Virus record (IMG/VR): IMGVR_UViG_3300045988_126062
Length of the DNA stretch: 64,000 nt
DNA from: a virus
Reading direction: 5' to 3' (one strand)
The position numbers and the translations under genes were made by a program. Each line of letters starts with the position of its first letter. The stretch's first letter is position 1. The notes below the pieces were generated by a model, which made no database searches, was not told where the DNA came from, and saw nothing but the letters and a program-made list of their open reading frames with translations. This document shows positions 18,063-49,460 of this stretch, one piece after another.

Positions 18063-18224
18063 TCCAAAAAACAAACAAAATGGAAGAAAAAGAGATAAAA
18101 GAAGCTATGATTGAAGCCCTGACGCACTTAGAGGGGTGTAAGTATTTCGTGGCCACGATAGTAAATAATCGAGAATAATACATAACTCATACAAATCATA
18201 ACCAATTTGTATTGTATTATGCAT

Positions 18225-18463
18225 AATAGCCAAAAGCTATTCCGATTATTAGCCTAAGTGTTGAAACAAACACTACGTTATTTAAGAATAGATAGTTACC
18301 TACGGATATTTACCCAAGTCTGTAGCTCTAAGGTAGGTGATTAAACAGTTCTGGTATTCAGGAACAGTGTTGCTTACGAAAAACCTTAAATAACATTGGC
18401 GATGGGTACTAACAGAGTTTTACTCTGACTTATGTTGAATAAACATTAAAAACGTTTGTAGAT
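18225..18463 (+). ncRNA. IscB omega-RNA, copy A: variable guide-like segment (~18225-18246) plus conserved scaffold starting TATTAGCCTAAG at 18247 and running to the iscB start
   Basis: Directly upstream of an IscB gene; same scaffold found at 30020 and on the minus strand at 49345, with compensatory base changes in two stems. Confidence 0.65.
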
Positions 18464-19690
18464 ATGGTGTACGTACAAGACATAAATGGTAAACCTCTGA
18501 TGCCAACAACGAGGCATGGTAAGGTTAGGAGACTGCTTAAAGATAAAAAGGCAGTCGTTGTGAACCTATGTCCGTTTACCATCCGATTAACGTACGTAAC
18601 ATCTGATTACAAACAGGAAATTGTGTTAGGCGTTGATGCTGGAACTAAGCATGTTGGTTTATCAGCAACGACGAAAAGCAAAGAACTTTACAGCAGTGAA
18701 GTAATTCTTAGAAATGATATCGTAGATCTTTTGTCTACCAGAAGAGAGCTACGAAAAACAAGACGGAATAGATTGAGACATAGAAAACATCGTTTTAACA
18801 ATAGAATAAAAAGTAGGCGTCCCGGATGGACAGCACCTTCGGTGAAATACAAAGTAGACGCCCATATTCGTGTTATTGACAATGTATGTTCTATATTACC
18901 AATATCTCGTATTGTTATCGAAGTAGCTCAATTCGATACTCAAAAGATTAACAATCCTAATATATCAGGTAAAGAATATCAGGAGGGTGATCAACTTGGA
19001 TTTTGGAACGTTAGGGAATATGTTTTAGCAAGAGATGGACATAAATGCCAGCATTGCAAGGGAAAGTCAAAAGACCCAGTATTGAATGTTCATCATATTG
19101 AATCACGAAAGACAGGTGGAGATTCCCCATCTAATCTTATTACCTTATGTGAAACTTGTCATAAAGAATACCATAAAGGTAATATAGATTTAAAAATCAG
19201 AAGAGGCAAGTCGCTTCGCGACGCAGCCGTAATGGGAATAATGAAATGGAGATTGTATGAAGAACTAAAATCTAAATACGACAACATTTCTATGACTTTC
19301 GGTTATGTTACAAAATACAATAGGATTAAACATGGTATTGAAAAATCTCATGTTTTCGATGCATTTGTTATTTCTAAAAACTTTGATGCTATAAGGTTAG
19401 GATATTATTATAAAGTAAGATTAGTAAGAAGACATAATCGTCAGATCCATAAACAAAAGATTCCAAAAGGAGGAATCAAGAGGTTAAATCAATCTCCATT
19501 TGAAGTTTTTGGTTTCCGTTTGTTTGATAGGGTTATGTTTGAAAACAGTTATTACTTTATATTTGCAAGGCGTAAAACCGGTAGTTTTAATATTCGAGAT
19601 ATTGATGGTAAAAACCAAAGAGATATTACATACAAGAAATTGAAATTATCAAGGTGTAAACGCTTTATGGTACAAAAGGAAATGGATTGA
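18464..19690 (+). CDS. iscB: IscB RNA-guided nuclease (PLMP, RuvC-I, Arg-rich bridge helix, RuvC-II, HNH, RuvC-III), 408 aa
   Basis: PLMP motif; RuvC-I LGVDAGTKHVG; bridge helix RRELRKTRRNRLRHRKHRFNNR; RuvC-II IVIEVAQFD; HNH HKCQHCKG...NVHHIESRKTGGDSPSNLITLCETCHKEYH; RuvC-III HVFDAFVIS. Confidence 0.85.
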   Translation: MVYVQDINGKPLMPTTRHGKVRRLLKDKKAVVVNLCPFTIRLTYVTSDYKQEIVLGVDAGTKHVGLSATTKSKELYSSEVILRNDIVDLLSTRRELRKTRRNRLRHRKHRFNNRIKSRRPGWTAPSVKYKVDAHIRVIDNVCSILPISRIVIEVAQFDTQKINNPNISGKEYQEGDQLGFWNVREYVLARDGHKCQHCKGKSKDPVLNVHHIESRKTGGDSPSNLITLCETCHKEYHKGNIDLKIRRGKSLRDAAVMGIMKWRLYEELKSKYDNISMTFGYVTKYNRIKHGIEKSHVFDAFVISKNFDAIRLGYYYKVRLVRRHNRQIHKQKIPKGGIKRLNQSPFEVFGFRLFDRVMFENSYYFIFARRKTGSFNIRDIDGKNQRDITYKKLKLSRCKRFMVQKEMD

Positions 19691-19713
19691 TTAATTTGAA
19701 TAAAAATATAGAC

Positions 19714-28090: not shown

Positions 28091-29791
28091 ATGACAACAA
28101 TTATGTACGTGTCAGCCATCTTAGCTGTAGTGATTATTTTGACAATCATCGGAGTCTTATCAAGGTATCGTAGATGTAAGCCTAATCAGGTCTTGGTCGT
28201 TTATGGTAAGACAGGTGGAGAGAAGAAATCGGCGAAATTATATCATGGTGGAGCAGCATTCGTGTTGCCTATTATCCAAAGCTATGATATTTTATCTATG
28301 GAGCCTATGCAAATAGATTGTAGGCTTACCGGTGCTTTGTCATCTCAGAATATTAGAGTAGATGTGCCTACAACTATTACAGTAGCTATCAGTACAAATC
28401 CTGAAATCATGCAAAATGCAGCAGAAAGACTTTTGGGGATGGATACCGAATCTACTGAAAATCTTATTACAGACATCGTTTACGGTCAGATGCGTTTGAT
28501 TATTGCCGAAATGACAATCGAAAAACTTAATTCTGATAGGGATGAGTTTTTGGATAAGGCAAGAAAAAACATTGATAACGAACTTAATAAATTGGGTCTT
28601 TATCTTTTGAACATTAACATCAGTGACATCAGAGATGAAGCCGGCTACATCATGAATCTTGGTAAAGAGGCTGAAAGCAAGGCTCTGAACGAAGCACAGG
28701 CTAATATCGAAGAACAGGAAAAGCTGGGTGCTATTAAGATTGCTGTACAACAGAAGGAAAAAGAAACGGCTGTAGCTAATACCCAAAAAGAGCAAGAGAT
28801 TCAAATTGCCTATACTGAAAAAGAAAAAGAAACGGTAGTAGCTGAAACAAAGAAAGAAAAAGAAGTAGCTTTGGCTTTAACCGATAAAGAAAAACAGATC
28901 GGTGTAGCTCAAGCCGATAGAGATAGGGCTGCGGCTATAGCAAAGACTTTGGCTGACAAGGGATCAGCGATTGCAAGATCTAAGGCGGAACTTGAAGTAA
29001 ACAAAGCTGAAGCCGAAAGAATGGAAGAAGTTGGAAAGAATAAAGCTGAAGCTGACAAACAAGCAGCTATAGCAATACAAGACTCTGAAGCTCAGATTAA
29101 GAAAGCTGAGGCTGAGAAAAATGCTTCTGTAGGCTACAACAATGCCCAGAAAGAGGTTGCTGTATCAGAATCAGAATTGCAGGTTATCAAAGCTCAATCA
29201 GAAAAGAAAGCCGGAGAAGAGAAAGTTAAATCGGAAGCGGCTGTGAAAACGGCAAAAGAGCTTGCTGATAAAGAAGTGGAAGAAGCTAAAGCTAAGAAGG
29301 TTCAAGCTGCGCTTAAAGCTGAAAAGATTGTGCCGGCTGAAATTCAGAAGCAGGAGGCTATGTTGCAAGCTGATGCCGAGGCCGAGAAGATCAAACGCCG
29401 GGCCGATGCTGAAGCAGCAGCACATTTGGCAAAAGCAGAGGCGGAAGCAAAAGCTATTCAGATGAAGCTGGAAGCGGAAGCCGAAGGTAAGAAAAAGTCG
29501 TTGATGGCAGAAGCCGACGGATTTAAGGCTATGGTGGAAGCAGCAGAATCCAATCCTCAGATCGCCATCCAGTACAAGATGGTTAATCAGTGGAAAGAAA
29601 TTGCTGGAGAACAGGTTAAGGCGTTCGAGCACATCAATCTCGGAAATATCACGGTATTTGACGGCGGTCAGAACAGCACCGGTAATTTCCTTAACAATGT
29701 TGTTAAGGCCGTTGCTCCGGCATTGGGAGTCATTGATCAGCTTCCGATTGCAGATACTTTAAAGAAGTTAAAAGGAGATGACAAAAAATAA
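28091..29791 (+). CDS. SPFH/band-7 flotillin-like protein (N-terminal TM, SPFH domain, long EA/KE-repeat coiled coil), 566 aa
   Basis: YGQMRLIIAEMTIEKLNSDRDEF SPFH core; AEAEAKA-type repeats. Confidence 0.75.
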   Translation: MTTIMYVSAILAVVIILTIIGVLSRYRRCKPNQVLVVYGKTGGEKKSAKLYHGGAAFVLPIIQSYDILSMEPMQIDCRLTGALSSQNIRVDVPTTITVAISTNPEIMQNAAERLLGMDTESTENLITDIVYGQMRLIIAEMTIEKLNSDRDEFLDKARKNIDNELNKLGLYLLNINISDIRDEAGYIMNLGKEAESKALNEAQANIEEQEKLGAIKIAVQQKEKETAVANTQKEQEIQIAYTEKEKETVVAETKKEKEVALALTDKEKQIGVAQADRDRAAAIAKTLADKGSAIARSKAELEVNKAEAERMEEVGKNKAEADKQAAIAIQDSEAQIKKAEAEKNASVGYNNAQKEVAVSESELQVIKAQSEKKAGEEKVKSEAAVKTAKELADKEVEEAKAKKVQAALKAEKIVPAEIQKQEAMLQADAEAEKIKRRADAEAAAHLAKAEAEAKAIQMKLEAEAEGKKKSLMAEADGFKAMVEAAESNPQIAIQYKMVNQWKEIAGEQVKAFEHINLGNITVFDGGQNSTGNFLNNVVKAVAPALGVIDQLPIADTLKKLKGDDKK

Positions 29792-29798
29792 ATACAAT

Positions 29799-29830
29799 GG
29801 CCCAAGGTTACACTTGGGCCTAATTGAAGA
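29799..29830. terminator. Perfect 8-bp hairpin GGCCCAAG-gttaca-CTTGGGCC after the flotillin gene; the T-run is on the minus-strand side
   Basis: Inverted repeat read in sequence. Confidence 0.35.
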
Positions 29831-29999
29831 AGCAAAAGCAGCATTTATAGATTTCCTGCCGGCAGGGACAGTGCTTTACTAATTATAATATTTTTAACAT
29901 GGATTTTGGACAAGATTTAGAACCAGAAGAACTGACCGGGCATTATGATCGGTGTTATAACCCCAAATAGTATTAACCCAATATAATTCTATTATAAAA

Positions 30000-30268
30000 G
30001 TTTAATACATCTCTTTCAGAGATCGGGTTATTAGCCTAAGCCTTGAAACAGAGGCTACGTTATTTGAGAATAAATAGTTACCAAGGAATGTTTATCCAAG
30101 TTTCTTGCTCTAAGGATGGTGATTAAACAGGAGTAGTGTATTTGACGAAACAGTGTTGCCATTATATAAAACCTCTTATAACATTGGCGATGGGTACTTA
30201 CAGGAGAAATCATGACTTATCCCTAACGGGATTTACATCTACCAAGGAGACCGGAAGGTCTCCGAGGG
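30000..30268 (+). ncRNA. Orphan omega-RNA-like scaffold, copy B (no adjacent IscB): distinct 5' guide-like sequence, scaffold from 30020, 3' end replaced by GGAGACC-ggaa-GGTCTCC hairpin (30246-30263)
   Basis: Aligns with copies A and C over ~170 nt; stems retained through compensatory changes (GTGTT/AACAC vs GCCT/AGGC; CTAC/GTAG vs CAAG/CTTG). Confidence 0.6.
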
Positions 30269-30320
30269 GATGTATTAAAACATATGAATAGCTTTAAATA
30301 TATTTAATAGAATATGAGAT

Positions 30321-30668
30321 ATGGAATTGATTTTGAAACAGAAGAAGAGGAGGATGAAGAGTATGACTGATGAGGAATTTGCATTAGATAATAAGAAAAA
30401 GGTTGTTGTAAGAAAAAGAATATCCTATTTAAACAAAGGGGATAAAGTGTGGATCGTGTCTTCCGACGGGTATCTGCTACACACGGACGTGGTTAGAGCC
30501 GACCGAGGCCGATCTTATGTGGATATAGACGGGATACTGTATTGGAAACGTGGATTGGATGGCAAACATCGTAATCGTAACAACTACATGCAGTTCGCCA
30601 TGACACCAGAAGATGGTAAGAAGTATGTCGTATATTACCCGGAAGGATTTAAAGACGATAGCTTATGA
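30321..30668 (+). CDS. Hypothetical protein (115 aa)
   Basis: ORF track. Confidence 0.45.
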   Translation: MELILKQKKRRMKSMTDEEFALDNKKKVVVRKRISYLNKGDKVWIVSSDGYLLHTDVVRADRGRSYVDIDGILYWKRGLDGKHRNRNNYMQFAMTPEDGKKYVVYYPEGFKDDSL

Positions 30669-40200: not shown

Positions 40201-43200
40201 CTACTTGTAGCTCACATCATCGTCTCCTTCTGAATCAGGAGTAGCGCCGATGAAGAACATCATTGACTTGTTGTTTGTCTGCTGCCACCAATTATAGGCG
40301 CGCGCTACGTCTTCCGGCGTCTTGATATTATACCATTGTTTGATAAACGTCTGTTTGGCGAGTTGCCTAAATAACTTAGACTCTCCCTTGTATGTACCGG
40401 ATGTTACTTTATCAAGTGAATAATTCCTAAGATCGGTAAGATCCTTCAGTTTTCGCCCCATAACAAACGGATCGTTAATGATATCTACCACGTTAAGCTC
40501 CATAATAAACGGCATCTGTGAAGCTATTTCGTTTATGGTTCTGAATCCGACATAGGATCCAAATTGAGTAAGCCAACTTTCTTCGTTTTCATCATCATCA
40601 CGCCATCCGGCAAGAAGCATAGATACGGCCTGCATGATAAGGAACGTGCCGGCATAGACACTGAGACGTTTGAGATTGGTTTTTTCTACCTCATTCATAT
40701 TGTCTTTATTTTCGTTCCAGGCATCTATGATGTTTTTCATACCAGACTCGGAAGCCAGGCTAAATGTTTTGGCTATCATATTCTTTAACGTAATTGACAA
40801 CCCTTCCTCTTCTTGCATTGTCTGGAAATTGAAGCCACGTCTTTTCCACAGACGTTGAGCCGCCAGCACCAACCATCCTCGGTGGGCGGTCATGAACCTG
40901 GCTATCCAGTTGCGCGATGCGGCAGTTCGGTTTTCTTCATTCAAAGATCCGTTACATATCTGCGACAAGCTACGGACTTGATTCCTGGTTATAGCCATCT
41001 GGGTTTCAACTTCCTCAACAGTAACACCCGATCCCGGCTTTACAACCACCTTTCCATCCACGACGTCTACCATACTCCATAAAGTACGATCTTTTAATGC
41101 GTTCCATTCTCTTTTTATGGTACTCTGTTCTTTATTGCGTTCTTTTTCCATCTTGAAATCTTGGAACGTGTAGAACCGGCCTTTGTAATAACGAACATTG
41201 TCCATAGTAGCAATCATAACCTGCGGATCAAGAGGGTAGTTCAGGATTTCCATAAAAGCATACATAGGCGAACGCATTAAGGTCCTGGCCGCTCTATTGT
41301 ATCCGGCACCATACATACGATTTCGGATATTGAATATCCCCATTCTCTCACCTATGACATATAATTTGCTTTTCCTATCTATGTCTCCGGTTTCTGCTAT
41401 ACAAGATGGCGCAAGACGGGAAAACTCAGCCGATGCGTATTTAAGGGAATCTTTGCTTATATACTGTCCTACGGCTGATTCCATGATGAGGTTGATATGG
41501 CCTGTCAGGGCGCCGGTAGCTGCCACAAACGGAGACAGTGCCAAGTTCATAACCGACATAAATCTTTCAACAGCCATCATAATTCTTGTAAGGTCTACCG
41601 TATATCCTCCGATGTTCACCGTAAGTTTTTTGGTGTTCATCCTAATGCCATAATAATGATCGTTGAAGAAGTCCCTGAACATCTGATATGCTTGGGTTGC
41701 TTCAGCCTTTTTACCACCTTCAAATTGTTTATTTAGTAACATCTGCTCCAGTCCTTGGGCAAGCTCTATAGACTTCTGCTTTTCGTTGTATAACGATGAT
41801 TGCATCATAAGCATCGAATAAGAGTAGCCAAAATCGTGAGATACATCATCTTGGTTCTCCAATTCATATATGTAGTATTTAGGTATAGACCTAAGCCTGT
41901 CTTCTGGATCATACACTTCTCCTTGCCTGGTCTTACCATATAGAGAATCGTCTACTCTGTCCAGGCACAGATCTGATACAAAATTACGAACCGTATTTTT
42001 GAAGTTAATACCCAATCCTTCTACACGTTCTATATCTTGTTTGGATATCTGTGGAATAGCATACAGGTTCGGGCTCTGCTCTTTGTATAGATCAAGGGAT
42101 TGTCTTTTTATTTCCTTGAGTTTTTGAATCATATTCCACTGCTCTACGTTTTTAGTAGCAACCTCATTACCGTCAGCATCATACTTGATACCAAAGTCAT
42201 TGAAATACGATTCGTCACGATACAGGCTTTTCTTAGGCATTCGATGACCATACCCATGATCTTTTACATAATCAGGATTACGACCGCTATTTTCGGCTTC
42301 AGATTCAGCCACCCATGCCCTTGCAGGGTCGAAAGACAAGTACGATATGTCCATGCCATAATCTTGGGTGGATGTACCGTTTTGTACGTCCTTAACCATT
42401 TGCGCCACATCTATCTCACCTCGACCGATTTTGTCGATCATAGCTGCATATCCGGTAGGCGCCATGCGTTTATAGTACGAAAAAACCTGGCTTCTGGCAA
42501 ATTCATTAACAATAGCATTAGCTTCTTCTACGCCCTCTTCTCTTGTATTATTTAAAAATAAGCTGGCCATCTTAGCATTAACAGCATTCCTGAAATCTCT
42601 ACCGTCTAATTCTTTGCTTATACCAAGCTTTTCTGACAGGTAGTTGGTTTCAGATACGGTAAACAGATATCGGTTATCAGCAGCCTTAAACAGCTTATCC
42701 CTTAAAGCCTGAATCCTTTTTGCTTTCTTCGCCGTAGTATGACGTTGTACGAACTTCCATTCCACTTCCTTGGAGTCAGCAAGAGCATTTAAATAAGACT
42801 GATTTACTTCGTTTTCAGCCTTACTGCTTTTAGTAAGGTACTTATCAATATCTTCAAGACCCACCATCTTAGCATAATCTATCAAAATAGCGTAATCGGC
42901 TTCAATAGCTTCAGATGCGGCCCTAAAAGCATCTCTTTCGGATGAGGTAAATGTCGCTTCGTTAATTTCTCCGATATCAGCCACATCGCGATTGTTTCCG
43001 ATTATTTCCTTGATAATAGCCTTATTTTTTTCTATATCTTTCACAATAGAATCCACGTCAGTCGCATCTCTATCACTTGTCGTAGAACTAATGATATCAT
43101 GCGCCATTTTAAGATACGAAGCCTTGTTATTTGATTCGGTACGTGCCGACTGTTCTGATTCTACATCATTCCAAAACCGATCGTTGAATGACAGGTGACC

Positions 43201-47867: not shown

Positions 47868-47904
47868 GATACGTTTTTCTATTAAATTTATTAAATCTAT
47901 TCAT

Positions 47905-49143
47905 TTACTTTAATATAATCGGATGCCTCTTCCCTCTAATGAGTTTAAACTTTTTGCGTGAAACATCTTTTGAATTTTCTCCGTTGAAATCCCTGATATT
48001 GAAACTCCCTGATTTTCTCCTTCCATAAACAAAACATATTTTATTATTATACAACACTTTATCAAACAACCTAAAACCAAAAACCTCAAAAGGAGCTTGA
48101 TTGTTTTTCTTCTTTCCTCCTTTTAAAATTTTCATTTTATGTATTTGCCTATTATGCCTACGAATTAAACGTTTTAAATATTGACATCCGATTCGTTTCG
48201 CATTAATGTTCTTAGAAATGACAAACGCGTCGGATGTATGGGATTTTTCAATCCCGTATTTAATCCGATTATGTTTCGTAATGTAACCAAACGTCATAGA
48301 AACTCTGTCGTATCTGGATCTCAGTTCTTCATACAACTTCCATTTCATGATCCCCATTACGGCCGCGTCGCGGAGCGACGATCCCCGTTTGATCTTCAAA
48401 TCTATATTACCTTTATGGTATTCTTTGTGACAAGTTTCACATAAGGTAATAAGATTAGAAGGGGAATCACCTCCCGTTTTTCGGGATTCAAGATGATGGA
48501 CATTAAGGATCTTATCTTTTGACTTCCCTTTACAATACTGACATTTATGCCCATCCCTTGCTAAAACATACTCCCTTGTGTTCCAAAACTCAAGTTGATC
48601 ACCTTCCTGGTATTCTTTACCTAATATTTCAGGATTCTTAATCTTTTGAGTATCAAATTGAGCTACTTCAATAACAATACGAGATATTGGTAGTATAGAG
48701 CAAATATTTTCAATAACACGAATATGAGCGTCTACTTTGTATTTCACCGAAGGTGCTACCCATCCTGGACGCTTGCTTTTTATTCTATTATTGAAACGAG
48801 GTTTTCTATACCTCAACCTATTCCGTCTTGTTCTTCGTAGCTCCCTTCTGGTAGACAAAAGATCTACGATATCATTTCTAAGGATCACTTCACTACTGTA
48901 AAGTTCTTTGCTTTTCGTTGTAGCTGATAAACCAACATGTTTAGTACCAGCATCAACGCCTAACACGATTTCTTGTTTGTAATCAGATGTAACGTACATT
49001 AATTTGATGGTAAACGGACATAGGTTTACAACGATTGCCTTTTTGTCTTTAAGCAGTCTCCTTACCTTACCATGCCTCGTTGTAGGCATCATAGGTTTAC
49101 CATTTATATCCTGTACGTACACCATACTTACAAACGTTTTCAA
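47905..49143 (-). CDS. iscB: IscB RNA-guided nuclease, second copy (412 aa; about 90% identical to the copy at 18464; alternative start MVYVQ at 49122)
   Basis: Same PLMP, RuvC-I/II/III, bridge-helix and HNH motifs as copy 1; C-terminal ~25 aa diverge. Confidence 0.85.
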   Translation of the reverse strand: MKTFVSMVYVQDINGKPMMPTTRHGKVRRLLKDKKAIVVNLCPFTIKLMYVTSDYKQEIVLGVDAGTKHVGLSATTKSKELYSSEVILRNDIVDLLSTRRELRRTRRNRLRYRKPRFNNRIKSKRPGWVAPSVKYKVDAHIRVIENICSILPISRIVIEVAQFDTQKIKNPEILGKEYQEGDQLEFWNTREYVLARDGHKCQYCKGKSKDKILNVHHLESRKTGGDSPSNLITLCETCHKEYHKGNIDLKIKRGSSLRDAAVMGIMKWKLYEELRSRYDRVSMTFGYITKHNRIKYGIEKSHTSDAFVISKNINAKRIGCQYLKRLIRRHNRQIHKMKILKGGKKKNNQAPFEVFGFRLFDKVLYNNKICFVYGRRKSGSFNIRDFNGENSKDVSRKKFKLIRGKRHPIILK

Positions 49144-49368
49144 TGTTTATTCAACATAAGTCAGAGTAAAACTCTGTTAGTACCCATCGCCAATGTTATT
49201 TAAGGTTTTTCGTAAGCAACACTGTTTCGCAAATACACTACTCCTGTTTAATCACCCACCTTAGAGCTACAGACTTGGGCAAACATCCGTAGATAACTAT
49301 CTATTCTCAAATAACGTAGCCTTCGTTTCAAGGCTTAGGCTAATATCCGGACCATTTATGGTACATTA
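49144..49368 (-). ncRNA. IscB omega-RNA copy C (minus strand): scaffold 49345 down to 49144, guide-like segment ~49346-49368
   Basis: Reverse complement aligns with copies A and B; directly upstream of the iscB start. Confidence 0.65.
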
Positions 49369-49460
49369 AAACCTTATAATGAAATTATATTGTTTTAATG
49401 TTATTTCGGATATGAAAACAAATTCGCCACCGTATCTTTTATTAGCCAATTCTTCTACAG

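Follow-up and report, generated by a model that had tools for sequence, protein, structure and literature searches.

An IscB omega-RNA element without a nuclease gene in a phage genome, and its possible homing with IscB in trans

The RNA family of the locus described here, the presence of IscB elements in phages and the concept of an element that carries only an omega-RNA are already known. In the published architecture of IscB omega-RNAs the guide lies 5' of the scaffold, and the scaffold is bounded by the transposon end (Meers 2023 preprint, 10.1101/2023.03.14.532601). The same work describes PATE-like IS200/IS605 elements that have no protein gene but do encode an omega-RNA, and for which another locus would have to supply the nuclease; the earlier case for this dependence on foreign nucleases was mainly that bacterial chromosomes contain such elements. 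A review (PMC13565253) describes the non-restorative homing of transposons, with co-infecting phages or plasmids as recipients. What appears to be new in our case is a lineage of the IscB type that is borne by phages, is actively spreading and has a 3' hairpin module of its own, with a start-codon ATG motif and presence/absence data from a population. On balance we think it probable that the element in question, B, is a non-autonomous PATE/MITE-like derivative of an IscB element, which homes into the empty sites of co-infecting phages by means of IscB provided in trans.

The window that we analysed is a stretch of 64 kb from the ~150-kb genome of a human-gut phage in IMG/VR (IMGVR_UViG_3300045988_126062). 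A scan with all Rfam models gave exactly three above-threshold matches in it, all to HEARO (RF02033), the IscB omega-RNA, and a fourth HEARO copy was absent even at E<=0.05. The three copies are:

18198-18413, plus strand: HEARO copy A, 106 bits
29957-30201, plus strand: HEARO copy B, 95.2 bits against a gathering score of 83, E 3e-18, model positions 1-211
49413-49176, minus strand: HEARO copy C, 89 bits

Copies A and C each lie directly 5' of an iscB ORF (408 aa and 412 aa) with the RRXRR and HNH domains of Pfam. The two proteins share 83% identity and are full-length homologues of OgeuIscB, with which their RuvC D/E/D and HNH catalytic motifs align. A tblastn search of the window found IscB coding sequence at A and C only, and therefore none after B; the preliminary description of this DNA, which had reported a third IscB omega-RNA scaffold without an adjacent iscB gene, is borne out. 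The first ORF 3' of B (30321-30668, plus strand, 115 aa) matches no Pfam family, and a PD-(D/E)XK nuclease gene comes after it. A scan for IscB found no close relative in Bacteroidales genomes. The best match of this host search was an IscB 88% identical to that of the gut phage (L261, NZ_JBHMEP010000019.1), on a 20-kb contig labelled Vibrio olivae, which in that assembly is probably a contaminant or of phage origin. All three elements of the window are co-oriented with their neighbouring genes. The omega-RNAs are spaced 12-19 kb apart, one of them on the opposite strand, and do not form a tandem repeat-spacer array. The CRISPR-like multiplexing that had been suggested for them is thus an analogy only, because the units are dispersed.

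The boundaries of B can be read from the phage csAssE-Sib (OR575929.1, 151 kb, human gut), for which a literature search found nothing, and which served as the reference empty site. Around B the window is 94% identical to csAssE-Sib, with ~350 nt absent from the latter. Since this alignment shows a clean empty site, B is a 364-bp insertion. The empty site reads CATTATGATCAGTGTT(AT)GGAATTGATTTTG, with the junction GTGTT(AT)GGAATTG, and the insertion is precise and without target duplication, as seen against csAssE-Sib and the 110 IMG/VR contigs in which the site is empty. The start of B coincides with HEARO model position 1 and its ends are exactly those common to copies at other sites. The coordinates given previously (30000-30268) were too narrow, with the scaffold starting at 29957 and the element reaching 30320. 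No ORF of note was found inside 29957-30320. The element and its immediate surroundings are composed as follows:

29941-29956, plus strand: predicted 16-nt guide CATTATGATCGGTGTT, in the flank directly 5' of the scaffold and outside the inserted element
29957-30320, plus strand: whole orphan element B, 364-bp insertion, from the csAssE-Sib empty site (+/-2 nt, AT shared with the flank)
29957-30201, plus strand: omega-RNA scaffold core (HEARO RF02033, model positions 1-211), 95.2 bits, invariant positions kept
29957-30031, plus strand: 5' domain with stem P1, ATAACCC (29957-29963)/GGGTTAT (30025-30031), from fold and covariation
30201-30214, plus strand: small 3' hairpin CAGGA-GAAA-TCATG, one pair broken by A30212
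30219-30232, plus strand: hairpin ATCCC-TAAC-GGGAT, hallmark of the orphan lineage, from the comparison of orphan and IscB-linked copies
30234-30274, plus strand: long GC-rich hairpin module in place of iscB, dG -24.7 kcal/mol, z -6.2
30273-30320, plus strand: right end (48 nt), with element C as closest relative: homologous by local alignment to its final IscB codons and 37-nt right end
30321-30323, plus strand: ATG, inferred TAM and start codon of the ORF 30321-30668, from right-flank comparison

Upstream of B a flotillin-like gene (stop at 29791) is followed by a perfect 8-bp GC-rich hairpin at 29799-29820, for which a terminator was called on the minus strand only; if this hairpin terminates plus-strand transcription, B would need a promoter of its own. 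The insertion also truncates a 35-codon acidic ORF at 29899-29970, a putative gene that is intact in csAssE-Sib (MDFGQDLEPEELTKHYDQCYGIDFETEEEEDEEYD).

The complete elements to which B can be compared are:

18165-19713, plus strand: complete element A, with omega-RNA 18165-18463, iscB 18464-19690 and right end to 19713
47868-49413, minus strand: complete element C, with omega-RNA 49413-49144, iscB 49125(49143)-47905 and right end 47904-47868; ends from the junctions

The start of A at 18165 is fixed by its junction with csAssE-Sib, and a perfect 7-bp P1 stem (ATAATCG/CGATTAT) is found there. The Rfam match for A begins 33 nt late, and the 5' domain of A is longer than the model. A has a right-end motif, too. 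The idea that A lacks a right end was rejected, as the A-type end recurs beside several different right flanks. In comparison with csAssE-Sib, element A stands in place of 144 nt of other DNA, and the position of C is taken in that phage by a different stretch of 1246 nt (L003 2289-3534) with three genes, including a DUF2829 gene. csAssE-Sib also carries the left-flank guide sequence of C, followed by ATG. Elements A and C sit at boundaries of differing gene content between the two phages.

The last 48 nt of B align with the final IscB codons and the right end of C, which makes B an internal-deletion derivative of a C-type element. Only two places in the window match the right-end motif TTTAAWWWATTTAATAGAA with one mismatch or none, the right end of B and 47877-47895; a third match at 42538-42556 has 3 mismatches, which is chance level. 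We considered whether the right end could be a general phage intergenic motif and rejected this, since it is confined to these elements. By its parts, B is an omega-RNA with a new hairpin module and a right end, derived from an element that lost iscB, and this agrees with an origin that the preliminary description had named as one of two options. The perfect GC-rich hairpin that it had placed where iscB would start is present too: GGAGACC-GGAA-GGTCTCC at 30246-30263 forms the core of the module at 30234-30274. Two roles for this hairpin were tried and found wanting. As a canonical intrinsic terminator it was rejected, because the terminator scan made no call and B has no U-tract after the hairpin, unlike the L004 and D types of orphan (introduced below), in which UUUU(U) follows the stem. 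As an end recognised by TnpA it is disfavoured by its G.U pairs, which lie on the RNA-sense strand, and by full-length relatives without such a hairpin.

Compared with HEARO, the IscB omega-RNA (RF02033), B is alike in its full-length match above the gathering score, in helices with covariation, and in a 5' end that is the element boundary with the guide in the flank. It differs in that no iscB follows, that its 3' hairpin has switched to AUCCC/GGGAU and that it has an extra 41-nt GC hairpin. B shares family and ends with the ISC (IscB-only) non-autonomous transposons (Kapitonov 2016, PMC4810608), of which A and C are ordinary members and B is a derived one, differing in the complete loss of the IscB ORF. 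MITEs are likewise short internal-deletion derivatives that are found at many sites and depend on the proteins of full-length relatives, but B has no terminal inverted repeats or target duplication, and its target is set by an RNA gene of its own that looks functional. With the PATE-like elements (Meers 2023) it has in common that it is non-autonomous and protein-less, keeps its omega-RNA, uses a fixed motif and makes no target duplication. It differs from them in being IscB-type and not TnpB-type, phage-borne and not chromosomal, in the full 5'-located scaffold and the new hairpin module, in that none of the 28 window ORFs scanned is a TnpA, and in population data that point to homing between phage genomes. 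The precise insertion, the inferred TAM and the ends common with full-length relatives are those of a non-autonomous IS200/IS605 element.

These likenesses raise the question whether B is a classical PATE, moved as a mini-element by a Y1 transposase (TnpA) from the host or another phage, with the omega-RNA serving only for 'restorative' homing after excision. The absence of target duplication, the fixed short motif and the many sites are the IS200/IS605 signature (Kapitonov 2016, PMC4810608), and reaching new sites needs some transposition step. However, there is no Y1 transposase among the 28 ORFs scanned in the window, which covers 64 kb of the ~150-kb genome, the IscB scan of Bacteroidales genomes gave no close relative, and iscB is rarely tnpA-linked in general (Meers 2023 preprint, 10.1101/2023.03.14.532601). 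Full-length C-type elements have no obvious subterminal hairpin at the right end. Hairpins are found near both ends of B, but their G.U pairs favour the RNA-sense strand, and for the GC hairpin this omega-RNA sense strand would be the bottom strand for TnpA. We regard movement by TnpA as a real, if doubtful, possibility, and one that does not exclude our preferred reading of homing with IscB in trans.

Following the published IscB omega-RNA architecture, the guide of B is its 5' flank at 29941-29956. The preliminary description had pointed to another guide-like sequence, CATCTCTTTCAGAGATCGGGT (30008-30028), which turned out to be an internal hairpin (30009-30023, ATCTCT-TTC-AGAGAT) and part of the 3' strand of P1 (30025-30031). 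It cannot be a guide, because it is near-constant across insertion sites (with one loop C-to-A change, in L010 and L023), whereas the true flank varies. The target of B's guide at the empty site is CATTATGATC(A/G)GTGTT, then ATGGA. The 16 nt and the ATG are present in csAssE-Sib and in 110 IMG/VR contigs with A for G at 29951, so that the guide of the window and the target on the empty allele differ by one G:T wobble; further matches to the guide in the window have 3 mismatches each, which is chance level. It had been proposed that a guide matching only its own flank would make B a simple remnant. This was misconceived, as an OMEGA guide is always the element's own flank and its target is the empty allele, here found in 110 contigs.

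At position 29951 the G occurs in 16/31 occupied and 0/111 empty alleles, which all have A, and it tracks the B-like 364-nt subtype. This pattern is consistent with a very short co-conversion along with the element. An explanation of A at 29951 in empty sites as an escape mutation was rejected, since A is also found in 15 occupied alleles and G tracks the element subtype.

Of 22 distinct right flanks, taken from orphan and full-length elements together, 20 open with an ATG, which often starts an ORF of at least 100 aa. In the window the insertions lie directly 5' of ATG at 30321, 47867 and 19714, and in most cases the next gene begins with this ATG. Such positions suggest an ATG target motif by which insertions come to lie in harmless intergenic spots inside operons. 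Scaffolds begin with ATA and not with ATG, a difference from the empty site that may provide self/non-self discrimination.

In IMG/VR 110 contigs have the insertion site of B (site 1) empty and 31 have it occupied, an occupancy of 22%. This presence/absence picture bears on the idea of a domesticated weapon, in which extra guide-only genes would let one IscB cut competitor phages at several loci, to the benefit of the phage and not only of the element. A single genome does hold three omega-RNAs with three different flank-guides and two nucleases, targets of the B guide are common in related phages, and the guide of C, then ATG, also occurs in csAssE-Sib. But every guide is the element's own flank, which is what a selfish element would have; the units form no array, and the site is occupied in just 22% of genomes. 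We hold this idea to be quite unlikely.

The fold of B was the second subject of the preliminary description, which had read the stem differences from A and C as compensatory. The compensatory changes are real in three helices. P1 is AUAACCC/GGGUUAU in B, AUAAUCG/CGAUUAU in A and AUAUCCG/CGGAUAU in C; a helix reading CAAGGAA/UUUCUUG in B is CUACGGA/UCUGUAG in A/C; and the hairpin AUCCC/GGGAU of B is AUGUU/AACAU in A/C. The CAAGGAA variant, however, is also found in nine of 55 distinct IscB-linked cores, so that the differences of B from A/C mostly reflect descent from another IscB-linked lineage and not change within the orphan. In its core B is 73-77% identical to the omega-RNAs of A/C, and its nearest IscB-linked relatives, at 86%, come from other phages. 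All positions without variation among the 55 IscB-linked cores are kept in B, with the exception of A30212 and the switch of the hallmark hairpin. Position 30212 is A in B and L238 only and C in the other copies, and the small hairpin in which it lies (30201-30214) covaries elsewhere (CAGAG/CUCUG, CGGA/UCCG).

When B is aligned with A, C and five further copies, 26 of the 59 pairs of the consensus fold show compensatory change. We extended this structure with the 5' hairpins, of which P1 of B encloses two (29970-30008 and 30009-30023), and the 3' module. For the extended structure, which is partly built from B itself and therefore biased towards B, 91.7% of cells in the eight sequences are paired against 36-42% with slid partners, and 42 pairs have changed on both sides against 5-12 in the slid controls; 0/500 shuffles reach the observed values. 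The continued constraint that we propose for the orphan fold rests on the comparison of orphans with each other: in 37 distinct orphans alone 96.1% of cells are paired, compared to 35-43% when shifted, with 27 compensatory pairs. The G.U pairs of the orphan set and the GC hairpin make sense only on the plus strand, the sense of the omega-RNA.

An exact-pattern scan of IMG/VR gave at least 121 omega-RNAs of B's family, of which, among the matches listed, 91 have an iscB, 26 have none and 4 are undeterminable. Nearly all IscB-linked copies among these matches read GACTTAT-GTTGAATAAAC-AT and then the iscB start (hairpin ATGTT-GAATA-AACAT). Two divergent IscB-linked lineages (L028, L051) have a different hairpin sequence, neither of which is the orphan form. 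Every orphan among the matches listed reads GACTTAT-CCC-TAAC-GGG-AT and then continues into the long GC hairpin, a form shared by 0 of the IscB-linked copies listed. The presence of the hallmark hairpin and the GC module in all orphans sampled shows that they are one coherent lineage. Its diverged members include the L004 type (MT838317.1), 75% identical to B across the whole 364 nt, and a second diverged subtype, the D type. At the place of the GC module a hairpin is kept, with differing sequences, in three divergent orphan types, and in L039 (AA>TC) and L085 (GA>TT) independent substitutions abolish the internal loop of the hairpin, so that the stem has 11 perfect bp. At least 11 orphan-bearing contigs also hold an IscB-linked copy.

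Some copies are mosaic or decayed. L010, L023 and eight more site-1 copies, a 358-nt subtype, combine B-type ends and hairpin module with an A/C-like core, which is evidence that orphan omega-RNAs have recombined with IscB-linked ones. Decay is seen in L040 and in L236 (IMGVR_UViG_3300045988_124424), a site-1 copy of 203 nt in which the stretch between a CCAAGGA repeat in the scaffold and a second one in the hairpin module has been deleted.

A different orphan is found in the cultured Parabacteroides phage PF672P2, in whose complete 61-kb genome an orphan HEARO of 130 bits (OP172820.1 57570-57828; L005 2930-3188) runs right up to the ATG of a DUF3127 gene, without a GC hairpin module. A tblastn search found no IscB homologue in the complete PF672P2 genome; this is an independent orphan lineage without a resident nuclease. 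Such an orphan may be seen as a hint that the role of these RNAs is independent of IscB, with site occupation giving immunity to the IscB elements of other phages, or with the RNA as a decoy that soaks up incoming IscB. The insertion of B does part the guide match from its ATG. Site disruption alone, on the other hand, has no need of a conserved 250-nt RNA fold, and we find a role of this kind very improbable.

All 27 complete occupied copies at site 1 are nuclease-less, with lengths of 357-374 nt. Near-identical B-type copies are found in at least 6 left-flank and at least 5 right-flank contexts. The same B-type element occurs in L085, L072, L115 and L084 with chimeric flank combinations (same left and different right, and the reverse). 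Junctions at which phage modules recombine may be marked or mediated by B-type elements. Ten contigs carry an element with 0-4 differences from B over its 364 nt (0.6%), whereas the 300-nt flanks of the same contigs differ at 12-26 nt (6.3-6.6%), about ten-fold more. Markers in the flanks 18-60 nt from the junctions are not co-converted. The flank contexts, the low divergence and the ATG data indicate recent horizontal spread, ATG as the TAM and a simple distinction between occupied and empty alleles.

Could B nevertheless be an inert remnant? This would mean that an IscB element inserted, its iscB was deleted and the rest is decaying, with conservation due to youth and to occasional gene conversion from functional copies. 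The copy in the window has a stem-breaking substitution, L236 (203 nt) and L040 are truncated, the mosaic orphans with A/C-like cores show that conversion from IscB-linked copies happens, and PF672P2 keeps its orphan without any IscB. Against this, 0/27 complete site-1 copies are full-length, which argues against recent deletion in situ, and the orphans have hallmark sequences of their own. The L004 and D types have diverged by ~25% and yet 96% of pairs are kept, with compensatory changes gained even in the orphan-specific hairpin. Near-identical copies at several unrelated sites and an element about ten-fold less diverged than its flanks are also at odds with simple decay, which we consider unlikely.

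Homing with IscB provided in trans accounts for these observations by a series of steps, of which we infer the transcription of B, the loading of IscB, the cleavage and the repair-mediated copying. B sits co-oriented in a phage operon and, as all three elements are co-oriented with genes, read-through transcription could include the flank-guide. The RNA would then consist of the 16-nt left-flank guide, the scaffold and the 3' hairpin, which may act as a 3'-end block or weak terminator. IscB from complete elements, either A and/or C in this genome or those of a co-infecting phage, would load the RNA of B in trans; A and C are plausible candidate suppliers. The complex would cut related phage genomes with an uninterrupted site, that is, a guide match followed by ATG, and recombinational repair from the occupied genome would copy the mini-element into the break, as in the non-restorative homing of transposons. 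The occupied allele would be spared, because the guide match there is followed by the ATA of the scaffold start.

In its presence/absence polymorphism at one site, with the empty co-infecting allele as target and an element far less diverged than its flanks, B is like known phage homing systems (intron/HEG, collaborative, non-restorative; PMC13565253). It would differ from them in RNA-guided recognition and in a nuclease encoded at another locus. Several observations count against homing in trans. Firstly, the core of B is only 73-77% identical to A/C, so that its compatibility with the resident IscBs is an assumption. Secondly, the unconverted flank markers 18-60 nt away imply a tract that is short for repair-mediated homing. 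Thirdly, the PF672P2 orphan shows that a resident IscB is not always present. And finally, A30212 weakens a conserved small hairpin in the copy of the window. The low divergence could in part reflect gene conversion from IscB-linked copies, as mosaic orphans exist, and the decayed copies L236 and L040 are a further point against.

A broader idea goes beyond B itself, and we put it forward as improbable. Guide-only omega-RNA genes would be a distinct evolving layer of RNA-guided phage conflict, either as hyper-parasites that reprogram the IscB of other elements or as extra guides kept by the phage, cutting competitors at start-codon-adjacent sites. They would persist even in phages without an IscB, through that of co-infecting phages, and amount to a natural, trans-acting system of dispersed guides that stands between the logic of OMEGA and that of CRISPR.

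B is a compact and well-bounded phage case of the IscB type, with a natural empty target and likely nuclease suppliers in the same genome, and its population data and ATG motif make RNA-guided homing that depends on a nuclease in trans directly testable. If homing of this kind takes place, the two modules of an OMEGA system, nuclease and guide, can part and evolve, one as parasite and the other as hyper-parasite. Such a separation would be relevant to the origin of dispersed guides and of CRISPR-like arrangements. Nucleases are already known to play a role at the boundaries of genetic exchange between phages, and this role would then extend to a mechanism guided by RNA.
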